Assembly: GCA_964016885.1 (NCBI GenBank)
Contig: OZ024740.1
Span: 435,612,001-435,676,000 of the forward strand
Reading direction: 5' to 3'
Source of the DNA: Eledone cirrhosa
Taxonomy: Eukaryota
Length of the DNA stretch: 64,000 nucleotides
Below the pieces are notes generated by a model that worked only from the letters and a program-made list of their open reading frames with translations, was not told where the DNA came from and did no database searches. The position numbers and the translations under genes are program-made. Shown here one piece after another: positions 914 through 50,930 of this stretch (position 1 is the stretch's first letter; every line of letters starts with the position of its first letter).

Positions 914-1290
914 CATCATCATCATCATTATCATCATCGTTTTTACGTCCACTTTGCTACACTTGCATGAGCAAGTGTAGCAAAGTGAACAGGTCCTTCT
1001 CAGCACAACATCTCTCCAGCTGTACGTCCACTTTGCCACACTTGCATGGGTTGGACAGGTCCTTCTCAGCACAACATCTCTCCAGCTGTACGTCCACTTT
1101 GCTACACTTGCATGGGTTGGACAGGTCCTTCTCAGCACAACATCTCTCCAGCTGTACGTCCACTTTGCTACACTTGCATGGGTTGGACAGGTCCTTCTCA
1201 GCACAACATCTCTCCAGCTGTACGTCCACTTTGCTACACTTGCATGGGTTGGATGGGTCGTTCTCGGTACGACATCTCTCCACTTGTCGC
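914..1290 (-). repeat. RTE LINE 3' terminus with (CAT)n tail, amplified as a 66-bp tandem array (~5 copies)
   Basis: Unit tacgtccactttgctacacttgcatgggttggacaggtccttctcagcacaacatctctccagctg; minus-strand translation WRDVVLRRTCPTHASVAKWT aligns with the RTE C-terminus WRDAVLNKTRPTLESREKQT at 35182-35245. Confidence 0.8.
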
Positions 1291-1755
1291 AAATATTTTG
1301 GCCCTTAACTTCTTACACTCTCAGGGGTCTGAACCACATCTAGGTCATGGCTCCTAGGTTCCCTTCTGCTGACAGCCATTTGGATACTAGAGACTTGTGT
1401 ATTTAAACCATATGGAGATTTACAGGAGAAAACCTAGCTGGAACTCCTCTCCATTCTCTCAGATTTCAAACTTATTGTCTAAGGTATTTTTTGTTTTTGT
1501 TGGACTTTATTCTAACTTCTATCTGGTTGACCTTAAGTTAACCACTTATTAATGTTGCTGTTTAACATTAAGTCAACAGTAATTCGACCTACAAGAGGTT
1601 CCAGCTGTGACCATCCTGTCTTTTACTATATTTTTACTTTTATGTCAAATTGGTTACAAATTTCTAATAAACCTGTTTACTGGTAGTGTTAACAAGACAT
1701 TGTCTGACTCAGTGGAGGGGACTTTGTAAAGTACTGTTTGTTGGGGGTCTTCATT

Positions 1756-3681
1756 GTGTGGAGGTGTGGTGTAGTGGTAAGGGTGTTATGTGGAGGGGTG
1801 TGGTGTAGTGGTAAGGGTGTTATGTGGAGGGGTGTGGTGTAGTGGTAAGGGTGTTCTGTGGAGGGGTGTGGTGTAGTGGTAAGGGTGTTCTGTGGAGGGG
1901 TGTGGTCTAGTGGTAAGAGTGTTCTGTGGAGGTGTTCTGTGGAGGGGTGTGGTGTAGTGGTAAGGGTGTTATGTGGAGGGGTGTGGTGTAGTGGTAAGGG
2001 TGTTCTGTGGAGGGGTGTGGTGTAGTGGTAAGGGTGTTCTGTGGAGGGGTGTGGTGTAGTGGTAAGGGTGTTCTGTGGAGGGGTGTGGTCTAGTGGTAAG
2101 AGTGTTCTGTGGAGGGGTGTGGTGTAGTGGTAAGGGTGTTCTGTGGAGGGGTGTGGTCTAGTGGTAAGGGTGTTCTGTGGAGGGGTGTGGTATAGTGGTA
2201 AGGGTGTTCTGTGGAGGGGTGTGGTGTAGTGGTAAGGGTGTTCTGTGGAGGGGTGTGGTCTAGTGGTAAGAGTGTTCTGTGGAGGGGTGTGGTGTAGTGG
2301 TAAGGGTGTTCTGTGGAGGGGTGTGGTCTAGTGGTAAGGGTGTTCTGTGGAGGGGTGTGGTATAGTGGTAAGGGTGTTCTGTGGAGGGGTGTGGTGTAGT
2401 GGTAAGGGTGTTCTGTGGAGGGGTGTGGTCTAGTGGTAAGGGTGTTCTGTGGAGGGGTGTGGTATAGTGGTAAGGGTGTTCTGTGGAGGGGTGTGGTGTA
2501 GTGGTAAGGGTGTTCTGTGGAGGGGTGTGGTCTAGTGGTAAGAGTGTTCTGTGGAGGGGTGTGGTGTAGTGGTAAGGGTGTTCTGTGGAGGGGTGTGGTC
2601 TAGTGGTAAGGGTGTTCTGTGGAGGTGTGTGGTGTAGTGGTAAGGGTGTTCTGTGGAGGTGTGTGGTGTAGTGGTAAGAGTGTTCTGTGGAGGTGTGTGG
2701 TGTAGTGGTAAGAGTGTTCTGTGGAGGTGTGTGGTGTAGTGGTAAGGGTGTTCTGTGGAGGGGTGTGGTGTAGTGGTAAGGGTGTTCTGTGGAGGGGTGT
2801 GGTGTAGTGGTAAGGGTGTTCTGTGGAGGGGTGTGGTGTAGTGGTAAGGGTGTTCTGTGGAGGTGTGTGGTGTAGTGGTAAGAGTGTTCTGTGGAGGTGT
2901 GTGGTGTAGTGGTAAGAGTGTTCTGTGGAGGTGTGTGGTGTAGTGGTAAGGGTGTTCTGTGGAGGGGTGTGGTGTAGTGGTAAGGGTGTTCTGTAGAGGG
3001 GTGTGTGGTGTAGTGGTAAGGGTGTTCTGTGGAGGGGTGTGTGGTGTAGTGGTAAGGGTGTTCTGTGGAGGGGTGTGTGGTGTAGTCTAGTAGTAAGGGT
3101 GTTCTGTGGAGGGGTGTGTGGTGTAGTCTAGTAGTAAGGGTGTTCTGTGGAGGGGTGTGTGGTGTAGTCTAGTAGTAAGGGTGTTCTGTGGAGGGGTGTG
3201 TGGTGTAGTGGTAAGGGTGTGGTGTAGTGGTAAGGGTGTTCTGTGGAGGGGTGTGTGGTGTAGTGGTAAGGGTGTTCTGTGGAGGGGTGTGTGGTGTAGT
3301 GGTAAGGGTGTTCTGTGGAGGGGTGTGTGGTGTAGTGGTAAGGGTGTGGTGTAGTGGTAAGGGTGTTCTGTGGAGGGGTGTGTGGTGTAGTGGTAAGGGT
3401 GTTCTGTGGAGGGGTGTGTGGTGTAGTGGTAAGGGTGTGGTGTAGTGGTAAGGGTGCTCTGTAGAGGGGTGTGTGGTGTAGTGGTAAGTGTGTTTTATGG
3501 AGGGGTGTGGTGTAGTGGTAAGGGTGTTCTGTGGAGGAGTGTGTGGTGTGGTGTAGTGGTAAGGGTGTTCTGTGGAGGGGTGTGTGGTGTAGTCTAGTGG
3601 TAAGGGTGCTCTGTAGAGGGAGTGTGGTGTAGTGGTAAGGGTGTTCTGTGGAGGGGTGTGTGGTGTAGTGGTAAGGGTGTT
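1756..3681 (+). repeat. G-rich 34-bp minisatellite (~55 copies) made of the 5' end/A-box of the adjoining SINE
   Basis: Unit ctgtggaggggtgtggtgtagtggtaagggtgtt; last unit continues directly into ggacttagt...gggttcggttcc of a family A SINE. Confidence 0.9.
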
Positions 3682-3905
3682 GGACTTAGTATTATGATGT
3701 GGGTTCGGTTCCTGGACTGGGTTGTGTTGTGTTCTTGAGCAAAACCCTTCATTTCATTGCTCCAGTATACTCAGCTGAAAATGAGTACCAGCAATAACTG
3801 GGGGGGGGGGTTAACCCTGTGATGGACTAGTGTCCTATCCAGGAGTCTTGTACTCTCAGTTGCGGAAACTGGATAAGCAATGGCCTGATGAGCCTCTAGG
3901 CATGT
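3650..3905 (+). mobile_element. tRNA-derived SINE, family A
   Basis: A-box tagtggtaag, B-box-like gggttcggttcc, body tgtgttcttgagcaaaac...cagctgaaaatgagtacc...aaccctgtgatggactag; matches 16926-17200. Confidence 0.85.
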
Positions 3906-3934
3906 TTGTCTCCTAAACACACAGACACAGTCTT

Positions 3935-4075
3935 CTGCATAGTTTACATCTACCAAATGTCACTCAAAAGCTATTTGTCAACTGAGGTTGTGATAAAACC
4001 TGTCTGAAATGTTGTGCTGTGGAATCGAACAACAGAACCACCTGACTGTGAAATGAGCCCCCTAACATGACCATT
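3935..4075 (-). mobile_element. Degenerate tRNA/CORE-like SINE, family C
   Basis: tctaccaaatgtcactcaaaagct...ggaatcgaac (reverse B-box GTTCGATTCC); similar remnants at 30060-30200 and 54650-54770. Confidence 0.55.
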
Positions 4076-4095
4076 AATAATGTTTGAACTCCTAT

Positions 4096-7000
4096 CCATG
4101 ATGTTAGCAATCAGCTTAACCGCCTAGCCAAGATGTTAGCAATCAGCTGAGCCGCCTAGCCATGCAGTTAGCAATCAGCTTAACCACCTAGCCATGCTGG
4201 TAGCAATAAGTTTAACCACCTACCCATGAAGTTAGCAATCAGCTTAACCTCCTACCCATGAAGTTAGCAATCAGCTTAACCTCCTAGCCATGATGGTAGC
4301 AATCAGCTTAACCTCCTAGCCATGATGTTAGCAATCAGCTTAACCTCCTAGCCATGAAGTTAGCAATCAGCTTAACCTAGCCACGAAATTAGCAATCAGC
4401 TTAACCACCTAGCCACGCTGTTAGCAATAAGCTTAACCACCTACGCATGAAGTTAGCAATCAGCTTAACCTCCTACCCATGAAGTTAGTAATCAGCTTAA
4501 TCTCCTAGCCATGATGTTAGCAATCAGCTAAACCTCCTACCCATGAAGTTAGCAATCAGCTTAACCTCCTACCCATGAAGTTAGCAATCAGATTAACCAC
4601 CTAGCCACGCTGTTAGCAATAAGCTTAACCACCTACCCATGAAGTTAGCAATCAGCTTAACCTCCTACCCATGAAGTTAGCAATCAGCTTAACCTCCTAG
4701 CCATGATGTTAGCAATCAGCTTAACCTCCTAGCCATGATGTTAGCAATCAGCTTAACCACCTACCCATGATGTTAGCAATAAGCTTAACTTCCTAGCCAT
4801 GCTGTTAGCAATCAGCTTAACCTCCTAGCCACGATGTTAGCAATCAGCTTAACCACCTAGCCATGCTGTTAGCAATCAGCTTAACCACCTAGCCATGCTG
4901 TTAGCAATCAGCTTAACCTCCTAGCCATGAAGTTAGCAATCATCTTAACCTCCTAGCCATGATGTTAGCAATCAGCTTAACCTCCTAGCCATGATGTTAG
5001 CAATCAACTTAACCTCCTAACCATGATGTTAGCAATCAGCTTAACCTCCTAACCATGATGTTATCAATCAGCTTAACCTCCTAGCCATGATGTTAGCAAT
5101 CAGCTTAACCTCCTAGCCATGAAGTTAGCAATCAGCTTAGCCGCCTAGCCATGATGTTAGCAATCAGCTTAACCTCCTAGCCATAATGTTAGCAATCAGC
5201 TTAACCACCTAGCCGTGATGTTAGCAATCAGCTAAACCGCTTAGCCATGGTGTTAGCAATCAGATTAATCACATAGCCATGAAGTTAGCAATCAGCTTAA
5301 CCTCCTCGCCATGAAGTTAGCAATCAGCTTAACCTCCTAGCCATGATGTTAGCAATCAGCTTAACCTCCTAGCCATGAAGTTAGCAATCAGCTTAACCTC
5401 CTAGCCATGATGTTAGCAATAAGCTTAACTTCCTAGCCATGCTGTTAGCAATCAGCTTAACCTCCTAGTCATGATGTTAGCAATCAGCTTAACCACCTAG
5501 CATTGCTGTTAGCAATCAGTTTAACCACCTAGCCATGATGTTAGCAATCAGCTTAACCTCCTAGCCATGAAATTAGCAATCAGCTTAACCTCCTAGTCAT
5601 GATGTTAGCAATCAGCTTAACCTCCTAGCCATGATGTTATCAATCAGCTTAACCTCCTAGCCATGCTGTTAGCAATCAGCTTAACCTCCTAGCCATGATG
5701 TTAGCAATCAGCTTAACCTCATAGCCATGAACTTAGCAATCAGCTTAGCCTCCTAGCCATGATGGTAGCAATCAGCTTAACCTCCTAGCTATGATGTTAG
5801 CAATCTGCTTAACCTCCGAGCTATGATGTTAGCAATCTGCTTAACCTCCGAGCCATGAAGTTAGCAATCAGTTTAGCCGCCTGGCCCTGATGTTAGCAAT
5901 CAGCTTAACCTCCTAACCATGAAGTTAGCAATCAGCTTAGCCTCCTAGCCATGATGGTAGCAATCAGCTTAACCTCCTAGCTATGATGTTAGCAATCTGC
6001 TTAACCTCCGAGCTATGATGTTAGCAATCTGCTTAACCTCCGAGCCATGAAGTTAGCAATCAGTTTAGCCGCCTAGCCCTGATGTTAGCAATCAGCTTAA
6101 CCTCCTAACCATGAAGTTAGCAATAAGCTTAAACTCCTATCCATGAAGTTAGCAATCAGCTTAGCCGCCTAGCCATGATGTTAGCAATCAGCTTAGCCGC
6201 CTAGCCATGATGTTAGCAATCAGCTTAACCTCCTAGCCATGAAGCTAGCAATCAGCTTAACCGCCTAGCCATGATGTTAACAACCAGCTTAACCTCCTAG
6301 CCATGATGTTAGCAATCAGCTTAACCTCCTAGCCATGATGTTAGCAAATAGCTTAACCTCCTAACCATGATGTTAGCAATCAGCTTAACGTCCTAACCAC
6401 GTTGTTAGCAATCAGCTTAACCTCCTAGCCATGATGTTAGCAATCAGCTTCACCTCCTAGCCATGCTGTTAGCAATCAGCTTAACCTCCTAGCCATGATG
6501 TTAGCAATCAGCTTAACCTCATAGCCATGAAGTTAGCAATCAGCTTAGCCTCCTAGCCATGATAGTAGCAATCAGCTTAACCTCCTAGCCATGATGTTAG
6601 CAATCAGCTTAACCTGCTAGCCATGAAGTTAGCAATCAGCTTACCCGCCTAGCCCTGATGTTTGCAATCAGCAGAACCTCCTAGCCATGAAGTTAGCAAT
6701 CAGCTTAGCCGCCTAGCCATGATGTTAGCAATCAGCTTAGCCGCCTAGCCATGATGTTAGCAATCAGCTTAACTTCCTAGCCATGAAGTTAGCAATCAGC
6801 TTAATCTACTAGCCATGAAGTTAGCAATCAGCTTAACCTCCTAGCCCTGATGTTAGCAATCAGCTTAACCTCCTAGCCCTGATGTTAGCAATCAGCTTAA
6901 CCTCCTAGCCCTGATGTTAGCAATCAGCTTAACCTCCTAGCCCTGATGTTAGCAATTAGCTTAACATCCTAGCCCTGATGTTAGCACTCAGCTTAACCTC

Positions 7001-10000
7001 ATAGCCATAAAGTTAACAATCAGCTAACCTCCTAGCCATGATGTTAGCAATCAGCTTAACCTCCTAGCCATGATGTTAGCAATCAGCTTAAACTCCTAGC
7101 CATGATGTTAGCAATCAGCTTAACCTCCTAGTCATGATGTTAGCAATCAGCTTAACCTCCTAGCCATGAAGTTAGCACTCAGCTTAGCCGCTTACCCCTG
7201 ATGTTAGCAATCAGCCTAGCTGCCTAGCCATGATGTTAGCAATCAGCTTAACCTCCTAGCCATGAAGTTACCAATCAGCTTCCGCTCCTAGCCATGATGT
7301 TAGCAATCAGCTTACCTCCTAGCCATGGTGTTAGCAATCAGCTTAGCCGCCTAACCATGATGTTAGCAATCAGCTTAACCTCCTAGCCATGAAGCTAGCA
7401 ATCAGCTTAACCGCCTAGCCATGATGTTAGCAACCAGCTTAACCTCCTAGCCATGATGTTAGCAATCAGCTTAACCTCATAGCCCTGATGTTAGCAATCA
7501 GCTTAACCTCCTAGACATGAAGTTAGCAATCAGCTTAACCTCCTAGCCATGATGTTAGCAATCAGCTTAACCTCCTAGCCATGATGTTAGCAATCAGCTT
7601 AACCTCCTAGCTATGAAGTTAGCAATCAGCTTAACCTCCTTACCATGATGTTAGCAATCAGCTTAACCTCCTAGCCATGATGTTAGCAATCAGCTTAACC
7701 TTCTAGCTTTGATGTTAGCAATCAGCTTAACCTTCTAGCTTTGATGTTAGCAATCAGCTTAACCTCCTAGCCCTGACGTTAGCAATCAGCTTAACCTCCT
7801 AGCCCTGATGTTAGCAATCAGCTTAACCTTTAGCCCTTCTGTTAGCAATCAGCTTAACCTCCTAGCCATGAAGTTAGCAATCAGCTTAACCTCCTAGCCA
7901 TGATGTTAGCAATCAGCTTAACCTCCTAGCCATGATGTTAGCAATCAGCTTAACCTCCTAGCCATGATGTTAGCAATCAGCTTAACCTCCTAGCCATGAT
8001 GTTAGCAATCAGCGTAACCTCCTAGCCATGAAGTTAGCAATCATCTTAACCTCCTAGCCATGATGTTTGCAATCGGCTTAACCTCCTAGCCATGAAGTTA
8101 GCAATCAGCTAACCTCCTAGCCATGGTGTTAGCAATCAGCTTAGCCGCCTAGCCATGATGTTAGCAACCAGCTTAACCTCCTAGCCATGATGTTAGCAAT
8201 CAGCTTAACCTCATAGCCCTGATGTTAGCAATCAGCTTAGCCGCCAAGCCATAATGTTAGCAATCAGCTTAACCTCCTAGCCCTGAAGTTAGCAATCAGC
8301 TTAGCCTCCTAGCCATGAAGTTAGCAATCAGCTTAACATCCGAGCGATGAATTAGCAATCAGCTTAACCACCTAGTCATGATGTTAGCAATCAGCTTAAT
8401 CACCTAGCCATGCTGTTAGCAATCAGCTTAACCTCCTAGCAATGAAGTTAGCATCAGCTTAACCTCCTAGCCATGAAGTTAGCAATCATCTTAACCTCCT
8501 AGCCATGAAGTTAGCAATCAGCTTAGCCTCCTAGCCATGATGTTAGCAATCAGCTTAACCTCCTAGCCATAATGTTAGCAATCAGCTTAAACTCCTAGCC
8601 ATGAAGTTAGCAATCATCTTAACCTCCTAGCCATGATGTTTGCAATCGGCTTAACCTCCTAGCCATGAAGTTAGCAATCAGCTTAACCCCCTAGCCATGA
8701 TGTTAGCAATCAGCTTAGCCGCCTAGCCATGTTGTTAGCAATCAGCTTAGCCGCCTAGCCATAATGTTAGCAATCAGCTTAACCTCCTAGCCCTGAAGTT
8801 AGCAATCAGCTTAATTTCCTAGCCATGAAATTAGCAATCAGCTTAACCTCCTAGCCATGAGGTTAGCAATCAGCTTAATCTCCTAGCTATGAAGTTAGCA
8901 ATCAGCTTAACCGCCTAGCCCTGATGTAAGCAATCAGCTTAACCTCCTAGCCATGATGTTAGCAATCAGCTTAGCTGCCTACCCATGATGTTAGCAATCA
9001 GCTTAACCTCCTAGCCACGATGTTAGCAATCAGCTTAACCTCCTAGCCATGAAGTTAGCAATCAGCTTAACCTCCTAGCCACGATGTTAGCAATCAGCTT
9101 AACCTCCTAGCCATGAAGTTAGCAATCAGCTTAACCTCCTAGCCATGAAGTTAGCAATCAGCTTAACCCCCTAGCCATGATGTTAGCAATCAGCTTAACC
9201 TCATAACTATGATGTTAGCAATCAGCTTAACCTCCTAGCCATGATGTTAGCAATCAGCTTATCCTCCTAGCCATGATGTTAGCAATCAGCTTAACCTCCT
9301 AGCCATGATGTTAGCAATCAGCTTAACCTCCTAGCCATGATGTTAGCAATTAGCTTAACCTCATAACCATGATGTTAGCAATCAGCTTAGCCGCCTAGCC
9401 ATGATGTTAGCAATCAGCTTACCCTCCTAGCCACGAAGTTAGCAATCAGCTTAACCTCATATCCCTGATGTTAGCAATCAGCTTAACCCCCAAGACGTGA
9501 AGTTAGCAATCAGCTTAACCTCCTAGACATGATGTTAGAAATCAGCTTAACCACCTAGCCATGCTGTTAGCAATCAGCTTAACCTCCTAGCAATGAAGTT
9601 AGCAATCAGCTTAACCTCCTAGCCATGAAGTTAGCAATCAGCTTAACCTCAGCCATGAAGTTAGCAATCAGCTTAGCCTCCTAGCCGTGATGTTAGCAAT
9701 CAGCTTAACCTCCTAGCCATGATGTTAGCAATCAGCTTAGCTGCCTAGCCAGGATGTTAGCAATCAGCTTAACCTCCTAGCCACGATGTTAGCAATCAGC
9801 TTAACCTCCTAGCCACGATGTTAGCAATCAGCTTAACCTCCTAACCATGATGTTAGCAATCAGCTTAGCCGCCTAGCCATGATGTTAGCAATCAGCTTAT
9901 CCTCCTAGCCATGTAGTTAGCAATCAGCTTAACCTCATAGCCCTGATGTTAGCAATCAGATTAACCTCCTAGACGTGAAGTTAGCAATCAGCTTAACCTC

Positions 10001-11372
10001 CTAGCCATGATGTTAGCAATCAGCTTAGCAGCCTAGCCCTGATGTTAGCAATCAGCTTAACCTCCTAGCCATGATGTTAGCAATCAGCTTAATCTCCTAG
10101 CCATGATGTTAGCAATCAGCTTAACCTCCTAGCCATGATGTTAGCAATCAGATTAACCTCCTAACCATGAAGTTAGCAATCAGCTTAGCAGCCTAGCCCT
10201 GATGTTAGCAATCAGCTTAACCTCCTAGCCATGAAGTTAGCAATCAGCTTAGCTGCCTAGCCAGGATGTTAGCAATCAGCTTAACCTCCTAGCCACGATG
10301 TTAGCAATCAGCTTAACCTCCTATCCATGATGTTAGTAATCAGCTTAACCTCCTATCCATGATGTTAGTAATCAGCTTAACCTCCTAGCCATGATGTTAG
10401 CAATCAGCTTAACCTCCTAGCCATGATGTTAGCAATTAGCTTAACCTCTTAACTATGATGTTAGCAATCAGCTTAACCTCCTAGCCATGATGTTAGCAAT
10501 CAGCTTATCCTCCTAGCCATGATGTTAGCAATCAGCTTAACCTAGCCATGATGTTAGCAATCAGCTTAACCTCCTAGCCATGATGTTAGCAATCAGCTTA
10601 ACCTCCTAACCATGATGTTAGCAATCAGCTTAGCCGCCTAGCCATGATGTTAGCAATCAGCTTATCCTCCTAGCCATGTAGTTAGCAATCAGCTTAACCT
10701 CCTAGCCACGATGTTAGCAATCAGCTTAACCTCCTATCCATGATGTTAGTAATCAGCTTAACCTCCTAGCCACGATGTTAGCAATCAGCTTAACCTCCTA
10801 GCCATGAAGTTAGCAATCAGCTTAACCTATCCATGATGTTAGTAATCAGCTTAACCTCCTAGCCATGATGTTAGCAATCAGCTTAACCTCCTAGCCATGA
10901 AGTTAGCAATCAGCTTAACCTCCTAGCCATGATTTTAGCAATTAGCTTAACCTCCTAACTATGATGTTAGCAATCAGCTTAACCTCCTAGCCATGATGTT
11001 AGCAATCAGCTTAATCTCCTAGCCATGATGTTAGCAATCAGCTTAACCTCCTAGCCATGATGTTAGCAATCAGATTAACCTCCTAACCATGAAGTTAGCA
11101 ATCAGCTTAGCAGCCTAGCCCTGATGTTAGCAATCAGCTTAACCTCCTAGCCATGAAGTTAGCAATCAGCTTAACCTCCTAGCCATGAAGTTAGCAATCA
11201 GCTTAGCCGCCTAGCCATGATGTTAGCAATCAGCTTAACCTCCTAGCCATGAAGTTAGCAATCAGCTTAGCCACCTAGCCATGAAGTTAGCAATCAGCTT
11301 AGCCGCCTAGCCATGATGTTAGCAATCAGCTTAACCTCCTAGGCATGATGTTAGCAATCAGCTTAACCTCAG
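4096..11372. repeat. 32-bp minisatellite, ~225 copies
   Basis: Unit gccatgatgttagcaatcagcttaacctccta with scattered variants and a 192-bp higher-order duplication near 5745/5937. Confidence 0.95.
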
Positions 11373-11404
11373 AGCCTGTATTATTTGTTGATATATTTTT
11401 AGGT

Positions 11405-11620
11405 TAGTACATTGGCAGTATCGGTGGAGTGCCTGACAATATGCTTTGTGACATAGTTGCGACCCTTTACATTCTGAATTCAAATCCCACTGAAGTTAAC
11501 TTTGCCTTTCAACCTTACAGGATCAATAAAATAAAGTACCAGTAACGCACTGGTGTTGACTTAATCGACTTTCTGCTCCCCCAGAATTGTTGACCTCGTG
11601 CCTAAATCAGAAACCATTAT
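11405..11620 (+). mobile_element. tRNA-derived SINE, family B
   Basis: ttggcagtatcggtggag A-box-like head, B-box-like gaattcaaatccc, core tttgcctttc...gatcaataaaataaagtaccagt...aatcgact, tail gtgcctaaatcagaaaccattatt. Confidence 0.8.
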
Positions 11621-12104
11621 TTTTTAATATTTTAAAAGTTCTAAAGAGAGATGGAATGATCTCGTTACACTCTGACAAACCCCTTCACAGGAAGATCATT
11701 TTTAATCTAATTTATCAAAAACAGATGAATGTGGATTCATTTATTGGCAGAGATTTCTAATGTAAATAACATATTTCAAATATTACCCAGAATGCATTGT
11801 TCTCTTTGTAAAAACCTGGTGTAAAAATATTGACCAAGACGATGACTTCGTTTATAAATAAACTCCCTTGTAACTTATTTTCTTTCTGAAGCCTAGTCAT
11901 ACATTTATATACTGAAAGCTGACACACACACACATACATACATACACACATACACAAACACATACACACTTACTCACACACACTCACTCACTCACTCACT
12001 CACTCACTCACACTCACAGATACATACACATACAGGGATATTCTGTACTTGTTTAATCCAACAGTTGAAATCGCCCACCAGTAGACAATATGACCGACTG
12101 GGGG

Positions 12105-12811
12105 GGCAATATTGCTGAGGGTGCGGAACCCTGTTCTACACTGGAGGGCAATATTGCTGAGGGTGCGGAACCCTGTTCTATACTGGAGGGCAACATTGCT
12201 GAGGGTGAGGAACCCTGTTCTATACTGGAGGGCAATATTGCTGAGGGTGAGGAACCCTGTTCTATACTGGAGGGCAACATTGCTGAGGGTGAGGAACCCT
12301 GTTCTATACTGGAGGGCAATATTGCTGAGGGTGCGGAACCCTGTTCTATACTGGAGGGCAATATTGCTGAGGGTGAGGAACCCTGTTCTACACTGGAGGG
12401 CAATATTGCTGAGGGTGAGGAACCCTGTTCTATACTGGAGGGCAACATTGCTGAGGGTGAGGAACCCTGTTCTACACTGGAGGGCAATATTGCTGAGGGT
12501 GAGGAACCCTGTTCTATACTGGAGGGCAATATTGCTGAGGGTGAGGAACCCTGTTCTACACTGGAGGGCAATATTGCTGAGGGTGGGGAACCCTGTTCTA
12601 TACTGGAGGGCAATATTGCTGAGGGTGAGGAACCCTGTTCTATACTGGAGGGCAATATTGCTGAGGGTGAGGAACCCTGTTCTACACTGGAGGGCAATAT
12701 TGCTGAGGGTGAGGAACCCTGTTCTATACTGGAGGGCAATATTGCTGAGGGTGAGGAACCCTGTTCTACACTGGAGGGCAATATTGCTGAGGGTGAGGAA
12801 CCCTGTTCTAC
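12105..12811. repeat. 42-bp minisatellite, ~17 copies
   Basis: Unit ggcaatattgctgagggtgaggaaccctgttctatactggag. Confidence 0.95.
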
Positions 12812-13260
12812 ACATTATAAACAGAATGAAATCCAACACACACAACAATAGTAAAAGAAAAACCTGCATATTTTCCAAAAGTTTCTCTTTTCTGACCCAT
12901 TAAACACAAATCTTACCTGTTTATAACCACTTTTCTTTATAATTCTCACATTTTGAAAAAAGTATTTTTCTCACTGAATTAACATTTTTATCTCTTGAGA
13001 CTTTTTGTTGTTTTAGACTAATATTACATAAAAAATGTGACTTTCAAATGAACTCAATACTTTGGGTTGGGAAACTAAAGTTTCACACACTTGAATAGTA
13101 ATGATAATAACTATTATTTCTTTCATATAATCTGTAGCAACCACATAGTACAAGCCACCATTACAGCTACTATTATCTGTTAGAAATAGCAATAAAATCT
13201 TACTCAAACTAAAACTTTCTCATCTTAAAAGCACACTTTAAATAATGTAGTCTAGTTGAC

Positions 13261-13442
13261 AGTGGCACTAACATGGCGTTGTATATAATAGAGTTGGCAG
13301 TGGCACTAATATGGCACTATACATAAGAAGTGGCACTGGCACTAGCATGGTGTTGTACATAATAGAGGTGGTAGTGGCACTAACATGGCGTTGTACATAA
13401 TAGCGGTAGCAGTGGCACTAACATGGCACTATACATAAGAGG
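13261..13442. repeat. Degenerate ~38-bp tandem repeat, ~5 copies
   Basis: Recurrent agtggcactaacatggcgttgtacataata. Confidence 0.7.
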
Positions 13443-13502
13443 TGTTTATCCAGGACAGGATATCAGTCATTTACTGGATTATAATAATAATAATTATTAT
13501 TA

Positions 13503-13650
13503 TTTCTACTTTAGGCACAAGGCCAGCAATTCCCCAGTGCATTACTGGTACTTTATTTTATCGACCCCGGCGGGATTTGAACTCAGATCGTAAAGGGACG
13601 TAACTATGCTGGAAAGCATGGCGTCCGACCCTCCACTGATACTGCCAATC
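13503..13650 (-). mobile_element. SINE family B (internally deleted)
   Basis: tttctactttaggcacaaggccagcaat...actggtactttattttatcgacccc...ggatttgaactcag...ctgccaat. Confidence 0.75.
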
Positions 13651-13654
13651 TACA

Positions 13655-14032: not shown

Positions 14033-14039
14033 ACCCTAT

Positions 14040-15505: not shown

Positions 15506-15564
15506 TTTTAGCCAAATATATTAAAATAAAATGTCTTTACTGTTAATAAGATTATAGAAGGCAG

Positions 15565-36180: not shown

Positions 36181-36259
36181 TAACTTTACATTGAAAGGGG
36201 CGGTGTGGATGGGGTGGAGGTGGTGGGACGGGGCGGGGGGGGGGGGGGGGTTGATAGAG

Positions 36260-37990: not shown

Positions 37991-37991
37991 C

Positions 37992-37997
37992 TATATA

Positions 37998-38089
<92 letters not shown>

Positions 38090-38141
38090 TATATATATAT
38101 ATGTATATACACATATATATATATATATATGTATATACACA

Positions 38142-38173
<32 letters not shown>

Positions 38174-38177
38174 CACA

Positions 38178-38270
<93 letters not shown>
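37992..38270. repeat. (TA)n microsatellite with TG/CA interruptions
   Basis: Direct; similar tracts at 39245-39364 and 39871-40052. Confidence 0.95.
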
Positions 38271-38273
<3 letters not shown>

Positions 38274-39246
38274 CGCTGATGATTCCAAGCTCCAAAAGGT
38301 CATCAATGGCGTGGATGACCGGATAAGCCTTCAGTCAGACCTACTGGCTGTTACCCAATGGGCAGAAAAGAACAACATGTTACTGAACGAAGACAAATTC
38401 GAACTGATCCACTTTGGAAAAGAGGATGCTCTGAAACTCCCGTACTCCCTTCCCTCCGGGGAAACTCTCGTGGCATCTAACAACATCAGAGACTTGGGAG
38501 TAACCGTGGACAGCAACATAAGCTGGACCACGCATATAAGCAGCAAAGTTGACATGGCCGGCAGAATGTGTTCCTGGATCCTCAGAACCTTCCAGTCGAG
38601 AGATTCCCGCACCATTATCCTTCTCTTCTCTACTTTTGCCCGACCACACCTTGAATACTGTTGTCCACTGTGGTCTCCCCACACGAAACAAAGTATCATG
38701 AAACTTGAAGCTCCTCAAAGGGCAATCACGAAAAAGATAGATGGCATGTCAGACCTTGACTACTGGGGTCGATTAGAAAACCTGAAACTTTACTCACTCC
38801 AACGTCGCCGTGAGCGTTATATTATCTGCATGATGTGGAAAATGTTCCATCATCACTGCCCAAATGATGTTGGCATCGCCTTCAAGATACACCCAAGGCT
38901 TGGGCCCCGTGCTATCCGTCCCATTCAAAAATCTAAATCGCAACTCATAACAACAATACGGCACAATTATTTCACCTCAATCGGCCCTGCTCTCTTCAAC
39001 ATCACACCAGGACACGTCAAAACAGAAACTGACCACACAAAATTCAAGAAGTCTTTGGACAAATTCCTCCAAGTAATCCCGGACAAACCACCCACACCCG
39101 GATATGTCTCCGCAAACAGTAATTCTCTACTCGAATGGGCCATGGTGCCCAAATCCTGAATTGAAAGACTTCGCCAGGTGGTGCTATTAAGTTAGACATG
39201 GCCTGGGCCAATGCTGGCCAAAACATTTCAAAGTTATTCAAAGTTA
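38271..39246 (+). mobile_element. 5'-truncated CR1/L2-group LINE with open frame
   Basis: FADDSKL...LQSDL...RDLGVTVD...[14 protein letters not shown]...[11 protein letters not shown]...FKKSLDKFL; stop at 39159; 3' tail ttcaaagtta x2. Confidence 0.92.
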
Positions 39247-39261
39247 TATATGTATATACAC

Positions 39262-39292
<31 letters not shown>

Positions 39293-39320
39293 TGTATATA
39301 CACATATATATATATGTATA

Positions 39321-39364
<44 letters not shown>

Positions 39365-39870
39365 CAAACTAGAACTTTACTCTTAGCCAGGTTAATTTTA
39401 AGGCCTTTTGATTCTAGGCCGTGCTTCCATGTTTGGAATTTCTTCTCTAGCTCGGCCATTGATTCAGCTATGAGTGTCAGGTCGTCTGCGTATAGGAGTT
39501 CCCATCGGCATAGTTACTCCTATCTAGGGCATCTCCTTTAGTTGTGCTATTACTTTTTCCGTGACCTTCATGACCTGGTCGATTAATTTAATGCCTCTAT
39601 AGTTACTCCTATCTAGGGCATCTCCTTTACCCTTATAACAGTTAACGATGATGCTGCTATGCCAGTCCTTCGGAACAACCCCATTCTGTACGACTTGTTT
39701 AACTATCCAGGTGACCATAGTGTGTCCCACCGTGCCAGATGCCTTCAGCATCTCAGCAACTATTTCCGAAGGCCCAGCCGCCTTACCCGTCTTCATATCT
39801 TTGATTGCCTTACTTATTATACTACCCTCGACTAACACTGTTGGTCCCTCTATTGGGTCGATGTGGGGGA
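39365..39870 (-). mobile_element. Rearranged partial duplicate of the RTE at 37124-37990
   Basis: 39365-39505 matches ~37124-37265; 39538-39870 matches ~37656-37988; same 5' end cgatgtggggga next to (TA)n. Confidence 0.9.
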
Positions 39871-39901
39871 ATATATATATATGTATATATACATATATAT
39901 A

Positions 39902-40058
<157 letters not shown>

Positions 40059-40292
40059 CTTCAAAGCCAGCAATTTTGGGTGGAAGTTGATTATATAAAA
40101 TCCATTACTTGACTTATCTCTCTGTCTATCTATTACTCCCTGTTGTCTATCTATGTCTGTCTACCCCTCTATCTATCTCTCTGTCTATCTATGTCTGTCT
40201 ACCCCTCTATCCGCCCACCCTCCCCTTCCATCATCAGTGTTCATTTTTACATTATTCATCGTTTAGAGTTTTGGATAAATCTCTAGATTAAT

Positions 40293-42056
40293 GTATAACC
40301 TATACACCAGATATAGTCAGTAGGTAGATACTAGTTGTATAACCTATACACCAGATATAGTCAGTAGGTAGATACTAGTTGTATAACCTATACACCAGAT
40401 ATAGTCAGTAGGTAGATACTAGTTGTATAACCTATACACCAGATATAGTCAGTAGGTAGATACTAGTTGTATAACCTATACACCAGATATAGTCAGTAGG
40501 TATGTACTAGTTGTATAACCTATACACCAGATATAGTCAGTAGGTAGATACTAGTTGTATAACCTATACACCAGATATAGTCAGTAGGTAGATACTAGTT
40601 CTATAACCTATACACCAGATATAATCAGTAGGTAGATACTAGTTCTATAACCTATACACCAGATATAGTCAGTAGGTATGTACTAGTTCTATAACCTATA
40701 CACCAGATATAGTCAGTAGGTAGATACTAGTTGTATAACCTATACACCAGATATAGTCAGTAGGTAGATACTAGTTGTATAACCTATACACCAGATATAG
40801 TCAGTAGGTAGATACTAGTTCTATAACCTATACACCAGATATAGTCAGTAGGTAGATACTAGTTGTATAACCTATACACCAGATATAGTCAGTAGGTATG
40901 TACTAGTTCTATAACCTATACACCAGATATAGTCAGTAGGTAGATACTAGTTGTATAACCTATACACCAGATATAGTCAGTAGGTAGATACTAGTTGTAT
41001 AACCTATACACCAGATATAGTCAGTAGGTATGTACTAGTTCTATAACCTATACACCAGATATAGTCAGTAGGTAGATACTAGTTGTATAACCTATACACC
41101 AGATATAGTCAGTAGGTAGATACTAGTTGTATAACCTATACACCAGATATAGTCAGTAGGTAGATACTAGTTGTATAACCTATACACCAGATATAGTCAG
41201 TAGGTAGATACTAGTTGTATAACCTATACACCAGATATAGTCAGTAGGTAGATACTAGTTGTATAACCTATACACCAGATATAGTCAGTAGGTAGATACT
41301 AGTTGTATAACCTATACACCAGATATAGTCAGTAGGTAGATACTAGTTGTATAACCTATACACCAGATATAGTCAGTAGGTAGATACTAGTTGTATAACC
41401 TATACACCAGATATAGTCAGTAGGTAGATACTAGTTGTATAACCTATACACCAGATATAGTCAGTAGGTATGTACTAGTTCTATAACCTATACACCAGAT
41501 ATAGTCAGTAGGTAGATACTAGTTGTATAACCTATACACCAGATATAATCAGTAGGTAGATACTAGTTCTATAACCTATACACCAGATATAGTTAGTAGG
41601 TAGATACTAGTTGTATAACCTATACACCAGATATAGTCAGTAGGTAGATACTAGTTGTATAACCTATACACCAGATATAGTCAGTAGGTAGATACTAGTT
41701 CTATAACCTATACACCAGATATAGTCAGTAGGTAGATACTAGTTCTATAACCTATACACCAGATATAGTCAGTAGGTAGATACTAGTTCTATAACCTATA
41801 CACCAGATATAGTCAGTAGGTAGATACTAGTTCTATAACCTATACACCAGATATAGTCAGTAGGTAGATACTAGTTCTATAACCTATACACCAGATATAA
41901 TCAGTAGGTAGATACTAGTTCTATAACCTATACACCAGATATAGTCAGTAGGTAGATACTAGTTCTATAACCTATACACCAGATATAGTCAGTAGGTAGA
42001 TACTAGTTCTATAACCTATACACCAGATATAGTCAGTAGGTAGATACTAGTTCTAT
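40293..42056. repeat. 44-bp minisatellite, ~40 copies
   Basis: Unit gtataacctatacaccagatatagtcagtaggtagatactagtt. Confidence 0.95.
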
Positions 42057-42464
42057 ATTGTATGTAACATTGTTTGTGTTTCAAAATACTTCAATTTATT
42101 TTTATTTCTATTTTCATTCTGTTGGTAGCTTCCAAATTCTATTGAACACACCACCACTGTTGAAGTTTATAAACCATTTAAATAGTCTATTATTTGGTCT
42201 TCAAATAGAATACTTAAGCATTCTAGTGTATCTAGTTTGTCTGAGACCAGCCAAACATCTACGATAGATCTTACTAGAAGTAGGGGCAGTGCATTTGCTA
42301 TTTAAATACCTTGTTAATGTATTTATTGCATTTACTGCAGAAACATATGGATTTTGTGGTGGCAATATATTTGTTTTGATATGAAATTGTGTGTTGAAAC
42401 AAATATTGTTATATTTAGTAAGGGTCATGCCTTAATATTGCCAAAAATAATAGTAAAACACACT

Positions 42465-43627: not shown

Positions 43628-46100
43628 TGGACATGTAATACCACACTTTACATCTGGACATGTAATACCACACTTTATATCTGGACATGTAATACCTCAC
43701 TTTATATCTGGACATGTAATACCTCACTTTACATCTGGACATGTAATACAACACTTTACATCTGGACATCTAATACCTCACTTTACATCTGGACATGTAA
43801 TACCTCAATTTACATCTGGACATGTAATACCACACTTTACATCTGGACATGTAATACCACACTTTACATCTGGACATGTAATACCACACTTTACATCTGG
43901 ACATGTAATACCACACTTTATATCTGGACATGTAATACCTCACTTTACATCTGGACATGTAATACCACACTTTACATCTGGACATGTAATACCTCACTTT
44001 ACATCTGGACATGTAATACCACACTATATCTGGACATGTAATACCTCACTTTACATCTGGACATGTAATACCACACTTTACATCTGGACATGTAATACCA
44101 CACTTTACATCTGGACATGTAATACCACACTTTACATCTGGACATGTAATACCACACTTTACATCTGGACTTGTAATACCACACTTTACATCTGGACATG
44201 TAATACCACACTTTACATCTGGACATGTAATACCACACTTTATATCTGGACATGTAATACCACACTTTACATCTGGACATGTAATACCTCACTTTACAGC
44301 TCGACATGTAATACCTCACTTTACATCTGGACATGTAATAGCTCACTTTACATCTGGACATGTAATAGCTCACTTTACATCTGCACATGTAATACCTCAC
44401 TTTACATCTGGACATGTAATACCTCACTTTACATCTCGACATGTAATACCTCACTTTACATCTGGACATGTAATACCAGACTTTACATCTGGACATGTAA
44501 TACCACACTTTACAGCTCGACATGTAATACCTCACTTTACATCTGCACATGTAATACCACACTTTACATCTGGACATGTAATACCACACTTTACATCTGG
44601 ACATGTAATACCACACTTTACATCTGGACATGTAATACCACACTTTACATCTGGATATGTAATACCACACTTTACATCTGGACATGTAATACCACACTTT
44701 ACATCTGGACATCTAATACCTCACTTTATATCTGGACATGTAATACCTCACTTTACATCTGGACATGTAATACCACACTTTACATCTGGACATGTAATAC
44801 CACACTTTACATCTGGACATGTAATACCTCACTTTACATCTGGACATGTAATACCAGTCTTTACATCTGGACATGTAATACCACACTTTACAGCTCGACA
44901 TGTAATACCTCACTTTACATCTGGACTTGTAATACCACACTTTACATCTGGACATGTAATACCTCACTTTACATCTGGACATGTAATACCACATTTTATA
45001 TCTGGACATGTAATACCACACTTTACATCTGGAAATGTAATACCTCACTTTACAGCTCGACATGTAATACCTCACTTTACATCTGGACATGTAATACCTC
45101 ACTTTACATCTGGACATGTAATACCTCACTTTACATCTGCACATGTAATACCTCACTTTACATCTGCACATGTAATACCACACTTTACATCTGGACATGT
45201 AATACCACACTTTACATCTGGACATGTAATACCACACTTTACATCTGGACATGTAATACCACACTTTACATCTGGACATGTAATACCACACTTTACATCT
45301 GGACATGTAATACATCACTTTACATCTGGACATGTAATACCACACTTTACATCTGGACATGTAATACCACACTTTACATCTGGACATCTAATACCTCACT
45401 TTATATCTGGACATGTAATACCTCAATTTACATCTGGACATGTAATACCACACTTTACATCTGGACATGTAATACCACACTTTATATCTGGACATGTAAT
45501 ACCACACTTTATATCTGGACATGTAATACCACACTTTTCATCTGGACATGTAATACCACACTTTACATCTGGACATGTAATACCACACTTTACATCTGGA
45601 CATGTAATACCACACTTTACATCTGGACATGTAATACCACACTTTACATCTGGACATCTAATACCTCACTTTATATCTGGACATGTAATACCTCAATTTA
45701 CATCTGGACATGTAATACCACACTTTACATCTGGACATGTAATACCACACTTTACATCTGGACATGTAATACCACACTTTACATCTGGACATCTAATACC
45801 TCACTTTATATCTGGACATGTAATACCTCAATTTACATCTGGACATGTAATACCACACTTTACATCTGGACATGTAATACCACACTTTACATCTGGACAT
45901 GTAATACCTCACTTTACATCTGGACATGTAATACCTCACTTTACATCTGGACATGTAATACCTCACTTTACATCTGGACATGTAATACCACACTTTACAT
46001 CTGGACATGTAATACCACACTTTACATCTGGACATGTAATAGCTCACTTTATATCTGGACATGTAATACCACACTTTACATCTGGACATGTAATACCTCC
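43628..46100. repeat. 27-bp minisatellite, ~92 copies
   Basis: Unit tggacatgtaataccacactttacatc. Confidence 0.95.
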
Positions 46101-46140
46101 CTTTATATAAGCTGTCCCGATTAAATATTACCTGTAATAA

Positions 46141-46360
46141 TGGTTTCTACTTTAGGCACAAGGACAGCAATTTGGGGGTAAGAGTAAGTCAATTAAACTG
46201 ATCCCAGTACGTTACTGGTACTTTATTTTATCGTCTCCGTAAGGATGAAAAGCAAAGCTAACCTCTGTGGGATTTGAACTCAGGACGTAAAGAGCCTTAA
46301 CTCTTTGCTATAAAGCATGTTGTCCGATGCTCCACCTATACTGCCAATCCCCTGCCCTAG
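46141..46360 (-). mobile_element. Full-length SINE family B with 15-bp target-site duplication
   Basis: tattacctgtaataa at 46126-46140 and 46361-46375; ggatttgaactc (reverse B-box), ctgccaat head. Confidence 0.85.
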
Positions 46361-46987
46361 TATTACCTGTAATAACAGACTGGCTATATATATTCTACAG
46401 AGGCAGGTGTATTGTGTTATTACCTGTAATAACAGCCTGGCTATATATATTCTACAGAGACAGGTGTATTGTGTTATTACCTGTAATAACAGCCTGGCTA
46501 TATATATTCTACAGAGACAGGTGTATTGTGTTATTACCTGTAATAACAGACTGGCTATATATATTCTACAGAGGCAGGTGTATTGTGTTATTACCTGTAA
46601 TAACAAATTGGCTATATATATTCTACAGAGGCAGGTGTATTGTGTTATTACCTGTAATAACAAACTGGCTATATATATTCTACAGAGGCAGGTGTATTGT
46701 GTTATTACCTGTAATAACAGCCTGGCTATATATATTCTACAGAGACAGGTGTATTGTGTTATTACCTGTAATAACAGACTGGCTATATATATTCTACAGA
46801 GGCAGGTGTATTGTGTTATTACCTGTAATAACAGCCTGGCTATATATATTCTACAGAGGCAGGTGTATTGTGTTATTACCTGTAATAACAGCCTGGCTAT
46901 ATATATTCTACAGAGACAGGTGTATTGTGTTATTACCTGTAATAACAAACTAGCTATATATATTCTACAGAGGCAGGTATATTGTGT
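46361..46987. repeat. 57-bp minisatellite, ~11 copies
   Basis: Unit tattacctgtaataacagcctggctatatatattctacagaggcaggtgtattgtgt. Confidence 0.95.
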
Positions 46988-47043
46988 TTGCTTTCAGTTT
47001 TCAAATCTTCTCTTCAATAAGTTGTGTTGATAGAACAGAAAAT

Positions 47044-47865: not shown

Positions 47866-50800
47866 AGTTTCTGTGGTTGAGTGCCGTTCCAGGAGTCATT
47901 GGCATCCTTTCTATGACTGGATACCCTTCCAGGAGTCATAAGGACAGTTTCTGTGACTGGATACCCTTCCAGGAGTCATAAGGACAGTTTCTGTGACTGG
48001 ATACCCTTCCAGGAGTCATAAGGACAGTTTCTGTGACTGGATACCCTTCCAGGAGTCATAAGGACAGTTTCTGTGACTGGATACCCTTCCAGGAGTCATA
48101 AGGACAGTTTCTATAACTGGATACCCTTCCACGAGTCACAAGGACAGTTTCTATGACTGGATACCCTTCCAGGAGTCATAAGGACAGTTTCAGTGGCTGG
48201 ATACCCTTCCAGGAGTCATAAGGGCAGTTTCTGTGACTGGATACCCTTCCAGGAGTCATAAGGACAGTTTCAGTGACTGTATACCCTTCCAGGAGTCATA
48301 AGCACGGTTTCTGTGACTGGATACCCTTCCAGGAGTCATAAGCACGGTTTCTGTGACTGGATACCCTTCCAGGAGTCATAAGGACAGTTTCAGTGGCTGG
48401 ATACCCTTCCAGGAGTCATAAGGACAGTTTCTGTGACTGGATACCCTTCCAGGAGTCATAAGGACAGTTTCAGTGACTGGATACCCTTCTAGGAGTCATA
48501 AGGACTGTTTCTATGGCTGGATACCCTTCCAGGAGTCATAAGGACAGTTTCTATGACTGGATACCCTTCCAGGAGTCATAAGGACAGTTTCTATGGCTGG
48601 ATACCCTTCCAGGAGTCATAAGGACAGTTTCTGTGACTGGATACCCTTCCAGGAGTCATAAGCACGGTTTCTGTGACTGGATACCCTTCCAGGAGTCATA
48701 AGGACAGTTTCAGTGGCTGGATACCCTTTCAGGAGTCATAAGGACAGTTTCTGTGACTGGATACCCTTCCAGGAGTCTTAAGGACTGTTTCTATGGCTGG
48801 ATACCCTTCCAGGATTCATAAGGACAGTTTATGTGACTGGATACGCTTCCAGGCGTCATAAGGACAGTTTCTGTGACTGGATACCCTTCCAGGAGTCATA
48901 AGGACAGTTTCTGTGACTGGATACCCTTCCAGGAGTCATAAGGACAGTTTCTGTGACTGGATACCCTTCCAGGAGTCATAAGGACAGTTTCTGTGACTGG
49001 ATACCCTTCCAGGAGTCATAAGGACAGTTTCTGTGACTGGATACCCTTCCAGGAGTCATAAGGACAGTTTCTATAACTGGATACCCTTCCAGGAGTCATA
49101 AGGACAGTTTCAGTGGCTGGATACCCTTCCAGGAGTCATAAGGACAGTTTCTGTGACTGGATACCCTTCTAGGAGTCATAAGGGCAGTTTCTGTGACTGG
49201 ATACCCTTCCAGGAGTCATAAGGACAGTTTCAGTGACTGGATACCCTTCCAGGAGTCATAAGGACAGTTTCAGTGACTGTATACCCTTCCAGGAGTCATA
49301 AGGACTGTTTCTGTGACTGTATACCCTTCCAGGAGTCATAAGGACAGTTTCAGTGGCTGGATACCCTTCCAGGAGTCATAAGGACAGTTTCTGTGACTGG
49401 ATACCCTTCCAGGAGTCATAAGGACAGTTTCAGTGACTGTATACCCTTCCAGGAGTCATAAGGACAGTTTCTATGACTGGATACCCTTCCAGGAGTTATA
49501 AGGACAGTTTCTGTGACTGGATACCCTTCCAGGAGTCATAAGCACGGTTTCTGTGACTGGATACCCTTCCAGGAGTCATAAGGACAGTTTCAGTGGCTGG
49601 ATACCCTTCCAGGAGTCATAAGCACGGTTTCTGTGACTGGATACCCTTCCAGGAGTCATAAGGACAGTTTCAGTGGCTGGATACCCTTCCAGGAGTCATA
49701 AGGACAGTTTCTGTGACTGGATACCCTTCCAGGAGTCATAAGGACAGTTTCAGTGACTGGATACCCTTCTAGGAGTCATAAGGACTGTTTCTATGGCTGG
49801 ATACCCTTCCAGGAGTCATAAGGACAGTTTATGTGACTGGATACCCTTCCAGGCGTCATAAAGACAGTTTCTGTGACTGGATACCCTTCCAGGAGTCATA
49901 AGGACAGTTTCTATGACTGGATACCCTTCCAGGAGTCATAAGGACAGTTTCTGTGACTGGATACCCTTCCAGGAGTCATAAGGACAGTTTCTATGGCTGG
50001 ATACCCTTCCAGGAGTCATAAGGACAGTTTCTGTGGCTGGATACCCTTCCAGGAGTCATAAGGACAGTTTCTGTGACTGGATACCCTTCCAGGAGTCATA
50101 AGGACAGTTTCTATGGCTGGATACCCTTCCAGGAGTCATAAGGACAGTTTCAGTGACTGTATACCCTTCCAGGAGTCATAAGGACAGTTTCTGTGACTGG
50201 ATACCCTTCCAGGAGTCATGAGGACAGTTTCTGTGGCTGGATACCCTTCCAGGAGTCATAAGGACAGTTTCTGTGACTGGATACCCTTCCAGGAGTCATA
50301 AGGACAGTTTCTATGGCTGGATACCCTTCCAGGAGTCATAAGGACAGTTTCTGTGGCTGGATACCCTTCCAGGAGTCATAAGGACAGTTTCTGTGGCTGG
50401 ATACCCTTCCAGGAGTCATAAGGACAGTTTCTGTGGCTGGATACCCTTCCAGGAGTCATAAGGACAGTTTCTGTGGCTGGATACCCTTCCAGGAGTCATA
50501 AGGACATTTTCTGTGGCTGGATACCCTTCCAGGAGTCATAAGGACAGTTTCTGTGGCTGGATACCCTTCCAGGAGTCATAAGGACAGTTTCTGTGACTGG
50601 ATACCCTTCCAGGAGTCATAAGGACAGTTTCTATGGCTGGATACCCTTCCAGGAGTCATAAGGACAGTTTCTGTGACTGGATACCCTTCCAGGAGTCATA
50701 AGGACAGTTTCTGTGGCTGGATACCCTTCCAGGAGTCATAAGGACAGTTTCTGTGACTGGATACCCTTCCAGGAGTCATAAGGACAGTTTCTGTGGCTGG

Positions 50801-50930
50801 ATACCCTTCCAGGAGTCATAAGGACAGTTTCTGTGACTGGATACCCTTCCAGGAGTCATAAGGACAGTTTCTGTGGCTGGATACCCTTCCAGGAGTCATA
50901 AGGACAGTTTCTGTGACTGGATACCCTTCA
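47866..50930. repeat. 40-bp minisatellite, ~76 copies
   Basis: Unit ctggatacccttccaggagtcataaggacagtttctgtga. Confidence 0.95.

Follow-up and report, generated by a model that had tools for sequence, protein, structure and literature searches.

Minisatellite junctions shared between retroelement paralogues in array-rich distal regions of the Eledone cirrhosa genome

We analyzed a 64,000-nucleotide stretch of the genome of the octopod Eledone cirrhosa (assembly GCA_964016885.1, 3.0 Gb; contig OZ024740.1, here C1, positions 435,612,001 to 435,676,000), referred to below as the window, in which 38,253 bases (59.8%) lie within 21 hand-listed minisatellite arrays, their places having been checked with Tandem Repeats Finder. 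A preliminary description of this sequence had proposed that recurrent, microhomology-primed amplification turns retroelement segments into locus-private arrays, the stages of which are visible side by side. On balance, we favor another course of events: births at microhomologies are probably rare, the junction that joins two units then spreads between paralogues by ectopic conversion, and the arrays subsequently grow in distal chromosomal zones. Chimeric units, in which a donor junction meets a host body, and regional clusters of such units are observed directly; a conversion event, its direction, and a link to recombination would account for them. The apparent stages are three different things, namely, seeds inherited with mobile elements, private births (at positions 944, 4089, and 47866 of the window), and shared junctions whose distribution differs from that of their host elements.

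The 61-bp and 34-bp junctions

A 61-bp unit, duplicated in the window at 53517 to 53642 on the reverse strand, lies in the 3' region of a long interspersed nuclear element (LINE) that we take to be CR1-like; CR1, RTE, and CRE are used here as presumptive labels, drawn from motifs rather than from placement in a reverse transcriptase (RT) clade. The motif CATG bounds this two-copy duplication and borders the unit in single copies too, so that the unit is flanked by a short direct repeat before any duplication. Entry and junction of the 53517 type are present, within 3 mismatches, at no fewer than 279 loci. The CR1-like family itself occurs about once per Mb (3,028 exit matches; among those listed, 58 lie at 0 to 55 Mb and 42 at 55 to 104 Mb of C1). 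The best 19 dimers on C1 to C4 all lie within 55 Mb of a contig end, and none of the 19 subfamily-1 dimers is interior.

Subfamilies of the CR1-like family can be told apart by the opening bases of the unit and by bases upstream of it. Subfamily markers tag donor and host within a single 61-bp unit, which makes it possible to count local slippage, retrotransposition, and conversion separately in this one genome. Among 100 listed junctions that stand behind a subfamily-2 motif, 97 are of the subfamily-1 type, which is also the type at 53517, and none is of the host's own type. The hosts examined comprise 19 loci with a visible entry, from 20 of the 33 listed places that were fetched, and one local locus. 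All 20 combine a subfamily-2 or subfamily-3 entry with a subfamily-1 junction, while host bases persist in the second unit at three sites farther on (10 of 13, 14 of 16, and 12 of 15 cases), and the hosts come from at least three upstream lineages. On C1 to C4, subfamily-2 copies are mostly interior (54 of 70), whereas none of their 6 arrays is (P = 3e-4); 14 of the 33 listed places are grouped in C13 between 9.4 and 14.2 Mb. The same junction occurs in restriction-site-associated DNA data from two further individuals, in 487 and 509 reads, as well as in 2 contigs of a second species; neither such reads nor the short-read contigs reach across an array.

The 34-bp units at 1756 to 3681 (forward strand) represent the head of a short interspersed nuclear element (SINE), and the array runs on into the SINE body (3682 to 3901), which bears out the SINE-head origin given in the preliminary description. 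The two bases that link its units originate from a site 57 bases deeper in the SINE, so the junction did not arise by a simple local slip. For the same reason, a plain head dimer was dropped as its source. SINE head dimers with a 91-bp unit end at that inner site, loss between two copies of GTGTT yields the 34-bp unit, and at one locus a 91-bp unit is followed by 34-bp units. To judge from these sequences, the 34-bp junction likely derives from a 91-bp head dimer by such a loss. At least 144 of its 169 matches lie in C1 at 429.5 to 442.0 Mb, and a fully listed variant occupies 8 of its 11 places within about 6.6 Mb (429.5 to 436.2 Mb). The bodies of six array-bearing SINEs are 9 to 15% apart and single heads 20%, while their commonest units differ by 7%.

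The flanks of the loci with 34-bp arrays are unrelated, and this holds for the flanks of most loci with shared arrays, which largely refutes the notion that shared arrays are segmental duplications among distal regions. Shared flanks do occur at L217 and L218, among five copies at C4 99 Mb, and among copies at C3 0.8 Mb. Assembly errors, which could likewise multiply an array, are at odds with the divergence of units within arrays (1 to 15%) and with the presence of the 61-bp junction in independent reads. We regard both explanations as highly improbable.

Some further observations concern the same two classes of units. Units of 27 to 29 bp and of 41 bp at C1 20 Mb (L033) and C9 10.8 Mb (L234) look as if they arose secondarily from the 61-bp unit by deletion. 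Clusters of 61-bp dimers lie 30 to 55 Mb inside C4 (at 49 and 325 to 331 Mb) and C3 (33 to 41 Mb), even though the C4 ends are poor in arrays. Two additional SINE families have arrays of 45-bp and 29-bp units, each at three to four loci and always in the 5' head (L093, L095, L135, L054, L090, and L131), some of them near the 1756 array.

Mobile seeds, chance overlap, and chromosomal position

Other seeds travel inside mobile elements. The 112-bp two-copy duplication at 35884 to 36115 (reverse strand) is built into a mobile, RT-encoding LINE and was not born in place. Its junction has 9,255 exact matches in the genome; those listed are mostly single and dispersed (among 100) and number about 2 per Mb across the first 51 Mb of C1, and the junction is present in one interior sample as well. 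Family D, a repeat with an internal 48-bp dimer, and the 3' untranslated region (UTR) of the RTE-like, RT-encoding LINE at 35770 to 37990 are one sequence. Of 10 family D copies from chromosome interiors, 9 already contain at least two 48-bp units. Both the 112-bp junction and the family D dimer are dispersed like their host element, chromosome interiors included, as expected of a repeat carried by a mobile element; the 61-bp and 34-bp junctions are not. Matches to the 112-bp junction number 6,069 in the forward and 3,186 in the reverse direction, which hints at one or more large arrays.

Primate SVA elements carry a variable number tandem repeat (VNTR) inside a mobile element. Carriage of this kind fits the 112-bp and 48-bp seeds of the RTE-like 3' UTR (family D) but not the arrays of 61-bp and 34-bp units, whose distribution departs from that of their host elements. 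Retrotransposition of master elements already carrying a dimer, with copies expanding only where favored, is accordingly correct for these two seeds and for these two only, and the occurrence of 91-bp SINE head dimers on C1, C12, C22, and C23 speaks for it too. As a general account it appears distinctly improbable: interiors are without 61-bp dimers although the same subfamilies are common there, at least three masters with one common junction would be required, and the crowding of the 34-bp variant within 6.6 Mb is not explained by retrotransposition.

Overlap with dispersed repeats was scored for 98 arrays with both ends known (56 from 424 kb around the window and 42 from point samples, with at least one coding zinc-finger repeat, L142, kept in the set) and for 980 controls, i.e., 10 length-matched pseudo-units per array taken from the same stretches. 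Scoring was done twice, by BLAST only and then with eight profiles added, with similar outcomes. Inside or at the edge of a dispersed repeat lie 55 of the 98 arrays and 573 of the 980 controls, i.e., there is no enrichment (P = 0.67). Edges considered alone are enriched in arrays (17 of 98, or 17%, versus 67 of 980, or 7%; P = 0.001), whereas the deficit inside repeats (38 of 98 versus 506 of 980) is doubtful because diverged units are under-called, the 4089 array having been scored as none. Short terminal overhangs of 3 to 12 bp are not in excess (22 of 82 arrays, with 21 expected). Retroelements thus supply units in proportion to their abundance, and the element-derived share of array bases in the window (44%, or 61% with two weak cases; see below) is about what chance would give with the repeat share of the flanking DNA (57% of controls).

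These results bear on several claims of the preliminary description. Birth driven by retroelements did not hold up, except that edges are enriched, nor did the idea that this process explains much of the tandem content, for the element-derived share of array bases is at about chance level. Microhomology priming agrees with CATG-bounded duplications that carry the host's own junction (17 places; see below) but finds no support in the overhang counts. The two-copy duplications taken for early stages both exist, but they are not private. Both outcomes named in advance as counting against local amplification occur in part, in that arrays overlap repeats as controls do and two seeds travel in mobile elements. 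Conversely, units do map to fixed places in elements, and the long arrays grew in place. Privacy is confirmed genome-wide for the arrays at 944 (4 of 4 matches in place), 4089 (63 of 63), and 47866 (59 of 59), while those at 1756, 14459, 35884, and 53517 are shared.

Array density is set by chromosomal position, unevenly between ends. The window lies at C1 435.61 to 435.68 Mb, 7.2 Mb from the end of the 442.87-Mb contig, and its high array density follows from this location, which is invisible from its sequence alone. In a survey of 100 point samples of 10 kb, binned by distance to the contig end, the minisatellite fraction was 0.37 at 0 to 10 Mb (n = 41), 0.52 at 10 to 25 Mb (n = 19), 0.13 at 25 to 40 Mb (n = 8), 0.10 at 40 to 100 Mb (n = 14), and 0.03 beyond 100 Mb (n = 18). 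On C1 to C4, distal samples had a fraction of 0.53 (n = 38) versus 0.026 for interior ones (n = 28; P = 3e-6). Arrays fill more than 90% of 18 of the 60 samples within 25 Mb of an end, with units mostly unlike one another. At each end of C1 the array-rich zone extends over about 20 to 35 Mb and includes AT-rich units, and single arrays often exceed 10 kb.

Possible junction transfer, its rivals, and known systems

Seeds of arrays have three sources: carriage in a mobile element (112-bp and 48-bp units), infrequent local duplications that arose at short direct repeats or at fold-backs (944, 47866, and the 17 places with own-type 61-bp junctions), and junctions common to many hosts (61-bp and 34-bp units). 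For the last of these, a broken end in a single-unit copy may invade an array-bearing paralogue, copy about 10 to 30 bases across the junction, and re-anneal at the start of its own unit. The product would be a tandem duplication with the junction of the donor and the body of the host, and the new dimer could donate onward, giving rise to regional clusters. One junction variant is limited to two C4 loci 4 Mb apart. Dimers seem to grow to kb size or to more than 10 kb mainly within about 25 to 55 Mb of some ends and on small chromosomes, and such expansion zones are likely due to concentrated recombination-type repair. In its widest form, which we put forward tentatively as a plausible extension, a junction would be contagious, homing into single-unit SINE and LINE paralogues by ectopic gene conversion, giving each a new dimer, spreading from region to region along recombination-rich ends, and helping to build zones of 20 to 35 Mb that are about half minisatellite.

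A number of observations weigh against junction transfer. The 20 hosts of the 61-bp junction were picked by the subfamily-2 motif, and rare variants of the first unit recur in the second in only 4 of 12 cases. Own-type 61-bp junctions exist (50 matches at 17 places, or at 13 if five near-identical C4 copies are counted as one), from which local birth followed by overwriting could be argued. A few dimers are interior (C1 71.6 Mb, C2 71.3 and 218.9 Mb, with 3 mismatches; own type at C4 99 Mb). Bodies of array-bearing SINEs differ somewhat less among themselves (0.116) than from single copies (0.152), so they may constitute a subfamily. Segmental copies are found among some regional clusters, both C4 ends and the start of C2 are poor in arrays, and the distal samples come mostly from C1. 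Finally, the direction and the order of conversion are deduced from one assembly.

The own-type junctions cluster on C12 and C22, with six of their places at C12 35.9 to 47.3 Mb, and they led us to discard a strictly single origin of the 61-bp junction. They also speak for the alternative that short direct repeats give rise to every array on the spot, through slippage or unequal exchange, with young dimers later overwritten by conversion from the commoner subfamily-1 arrays. Tandem duplications reportedly arise at short repeats in the model of Haber and Louis, CATG flanks the 61-bp unit even in single copies, one C12 array has both junction types, and private arrays exist. However, imported junctions outnumber own-type ones (248 versus 50 matches, counted with different motifs) and are present even in two-copy loci (3 of 20), an excess of short overhangs is not seen in general, and overwriting would itself need ectopic conversion. 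Local birth of all arrays therefore seems unlikely to us, and transfer of junctions between paralogues is the reading that we carry into the following comparisons.

The sources cited here were drawn on in part, and comparisons are limited to those parts. In humans, tandem repeats that stem from transposable elements (TEs) make up 23% of minisatellites and 0.32% of the genome, with a mean of 2.3 to 2.4 units for Alu and no genomic hotspots, and direct repeats account for only 6% of births (PMC3389668). Minisatellite birth is an open question in that only this 6% of human TE-derived cases fits the two standard models (PMC3389668). As in humans, units are parts of SINEs and LINEs, elements have hotspots, multilocus and single-locus arrays coexist, and some repeats preexist in the element and travel along, as in LTR12 and L1PA; unlike in humans, arrays here have tens to hundreds of units and fill half of the distal samples, and junctions cross subfamilies (PMC3389668).

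The SINE-derived satellite (sSat) repeats of squamates resemble the Eledone arrays in several respects. Their definition, a tandem SINE segment whose terminal unit reaches the SINE end, describes the 1756 array and its relatives, which also share the distal preference; in both systems, units number from few to hundreds, subtelomeric preference is stronger for long loci, and loci are homogeneous with each other (PMC10702118). Squamate units are 70 to 290 bases long, however, and unequal recombination and concerted evolution are invoked for them; chimeras of donor junction and host body, or a comparison of LINE-derived and non-TE arrays with chance expectation, do not appear in the part of that work considered (PMC10702118). 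Human subtelomeric VNTRs resemble the Eledone arrays in having long units, a location near chromosome ends that is uneven between arms, and a link to recombination proposed by the authors, but their zone is 5 Mb with GC-rich units, whereas the C1 zones cover about 20 to 35 Mb and include AT-rich units (PMC7608644). Repair from paralogues and short flanking repeats have been proposed as sources of tandem duplications in elements (PMC9659126, PMC6947457). These proposals of nonallelic homologous recombination or ectopic repair are general, and the parts considered contain no example in which a junction moved from one subfamily to another or spread regionally (PMC9659126, PMC6947457).

An octopus repeat annotation does not mention distal tandem zones in the part considered (PMC13282606). 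Our literature search, which covered mostly open-access main texts, came upon no account of junctions being transferred from one element subfamily to another, nor one of such zones in cephalopods; supplements, e.g., that of PMC13282606, lay outside the search and may bear on novelty. Retroelement-derived and subtelomeric minisatellites are already known, and junction transfer would be the apparently new part, a little-documented route. If it is true, neither transposition nor repeated birth is required to explain why many loci have identical arrays. Moreover, the distal zones may serve as a guide, based on sequence alone, to the parts of octopod chromosomes in which recombination is concentrated, and annotation with an element library alone misses a large share of them. 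The pattern of donor junction with host body and its regional spread merit follow-up.

Arrays, element remnants, and gene sequence in the window

The arrays named in the preliminary description were all found in place, with 2 to 228 copies per array, and most but not all derive from retroelement segments. Unit origins were assigned with profiles of copies drawn from a genome sample of about 1.4 Mb, and window arrays beyond those tested genome-wide were compared with this sample only. By the definition of Ahmed and Liang (unit at least 70% element-like, or full-period overlap), the arrays at 944, 1756, 14459, 15566, 35884, and 53517 are element-derived, those at 4089, 30693, and 47866 are so in part, and that at 46361 is not. 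The element-derived share of array bases by hand is 44%, or 61% if 46361 and 22638 are counted. No repeat origin was scored for 7 of 16 window arrays, among them those at 4089 and 22638, for which there is weaker support elsewhere.

The 66-bp array at 944 to 1282 (reverse strand; 4.5 copies) comes from the 3' end of an RTE-like, RT-encoding LINE, as had been proposed, with profile matches on each of its 4 to 5 units. Its first unit is partly replaced by a perfect 17-bp fold-back (950 to 987). The 40-bp array at 47866 to 50929 (forward strand) does hold a family D segment, albeit inverted, and a forward family D 3' end follows it at 50933 to 51056. Both the inversion and the fold-back look like template switches. 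Two 48-bp arrays on the forward strand, at 14459 to 14827 and at 15566 to 16394 (17 copies), match the 48-bp family D segment by profile, confirming their expected origin, and the former grew from the internal dimer.

The array at 4089 to 11370 (reverse strand), 228 copies of a 32-bp unit, has a unit like the head of the old SINE family that lies alongside (3918 to 4085). Among 130 array units it is the best match to heads of that family, and none of 1,000 shuffles equaled it, which supports the SINE-head origin, although the adjoining SINE retains a degraded head of its own. Another SINE head begins 19 bases past the end of the array. The 28-bp array at 22638 to 28733 (forward strand; 220 copies) had been called a weaker case and stays one, its flank and unit start resembling a SINE segment in a single 50-base match (E = 0.001). 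Rfam identified no RNA family in window positions 1600 to 18000, so a tRNA origin of the SINE heads is unsupported there.

In the 25/32-bp array at 30693 to 33214 (forward strand), the first 19 or so unit bases equal the end of the open reading frame (ORF) of a dispersed element (30506 to 30690), a match present in 11 of 11 aligned element copies, some of them loose; the rest of the unit is not element-derived. The attribution to a CRE 3' end thus applies to those bases, and the label CRE is unconfirmed, as no family or homologue was found for the peptide. Similarly, the 57-bp array at 46361 to 46988 (forward strand) has as its first bases exactly the 15 bp duplicated at the target site of the SINE at 46141 to 46360, as described, but the remaining 42 unit bases are not repeat-derived. 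No repeat origin was detected for the arrays of 42-bp (12104 to 12810), 30-bp (18683 to 21223), 44-bp (40292 to 42057), 27-bp (43628 to 46105, stopping 35 bases before a SINE), and 52-bp units (61055 to 62407). Contigs of the second species cover unique DNA at 15001 to 15382 with 31 differences; they neither cover nor bridge the 42-bp array and contain no ortholog around 944, and nothing was concluded at these two places.

The RT ORF at 36298 to 37992 (reverse strand) matches RVT_1 (E = 1e-33), and a PHD finger separates its RT core from the C-terminal part. It lies among nested LINE fragments (35161 to 40060) separated by (TA)n tracts, in which the same RT region occurs twice as partial copies. 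At 63030 to 63140, a single 57-bp unit precedes a hairpin and a terminal CTAG, presumably a Helitron-like element, and the same unit is arrayed 35 and 7 times at nearby C1 loci (L057, 4024 to 6021; L011, near 3949 to 4342). A 72-bp unit inside a dispersed element recurs on C1, C2, C20, and C22 (L097 and L098, L068, L082, and L083), and 75-bp and 40-bp units are each common to two loci. A 10-kb array at C6 51 Mb (L125, 1 to 10000) has a 70/140-bp unit from about positions 2279 to 2388 of the large-subunit rRNA. At 63247 to 63408 (forward strand) lies an exon that is 89% and 84% like the EVI5-like proteins of two octopods, which marks the genome as an octopod's. The DNA rich in arrays may represent a very large intron of this EVI5-like gene or its upstream region.

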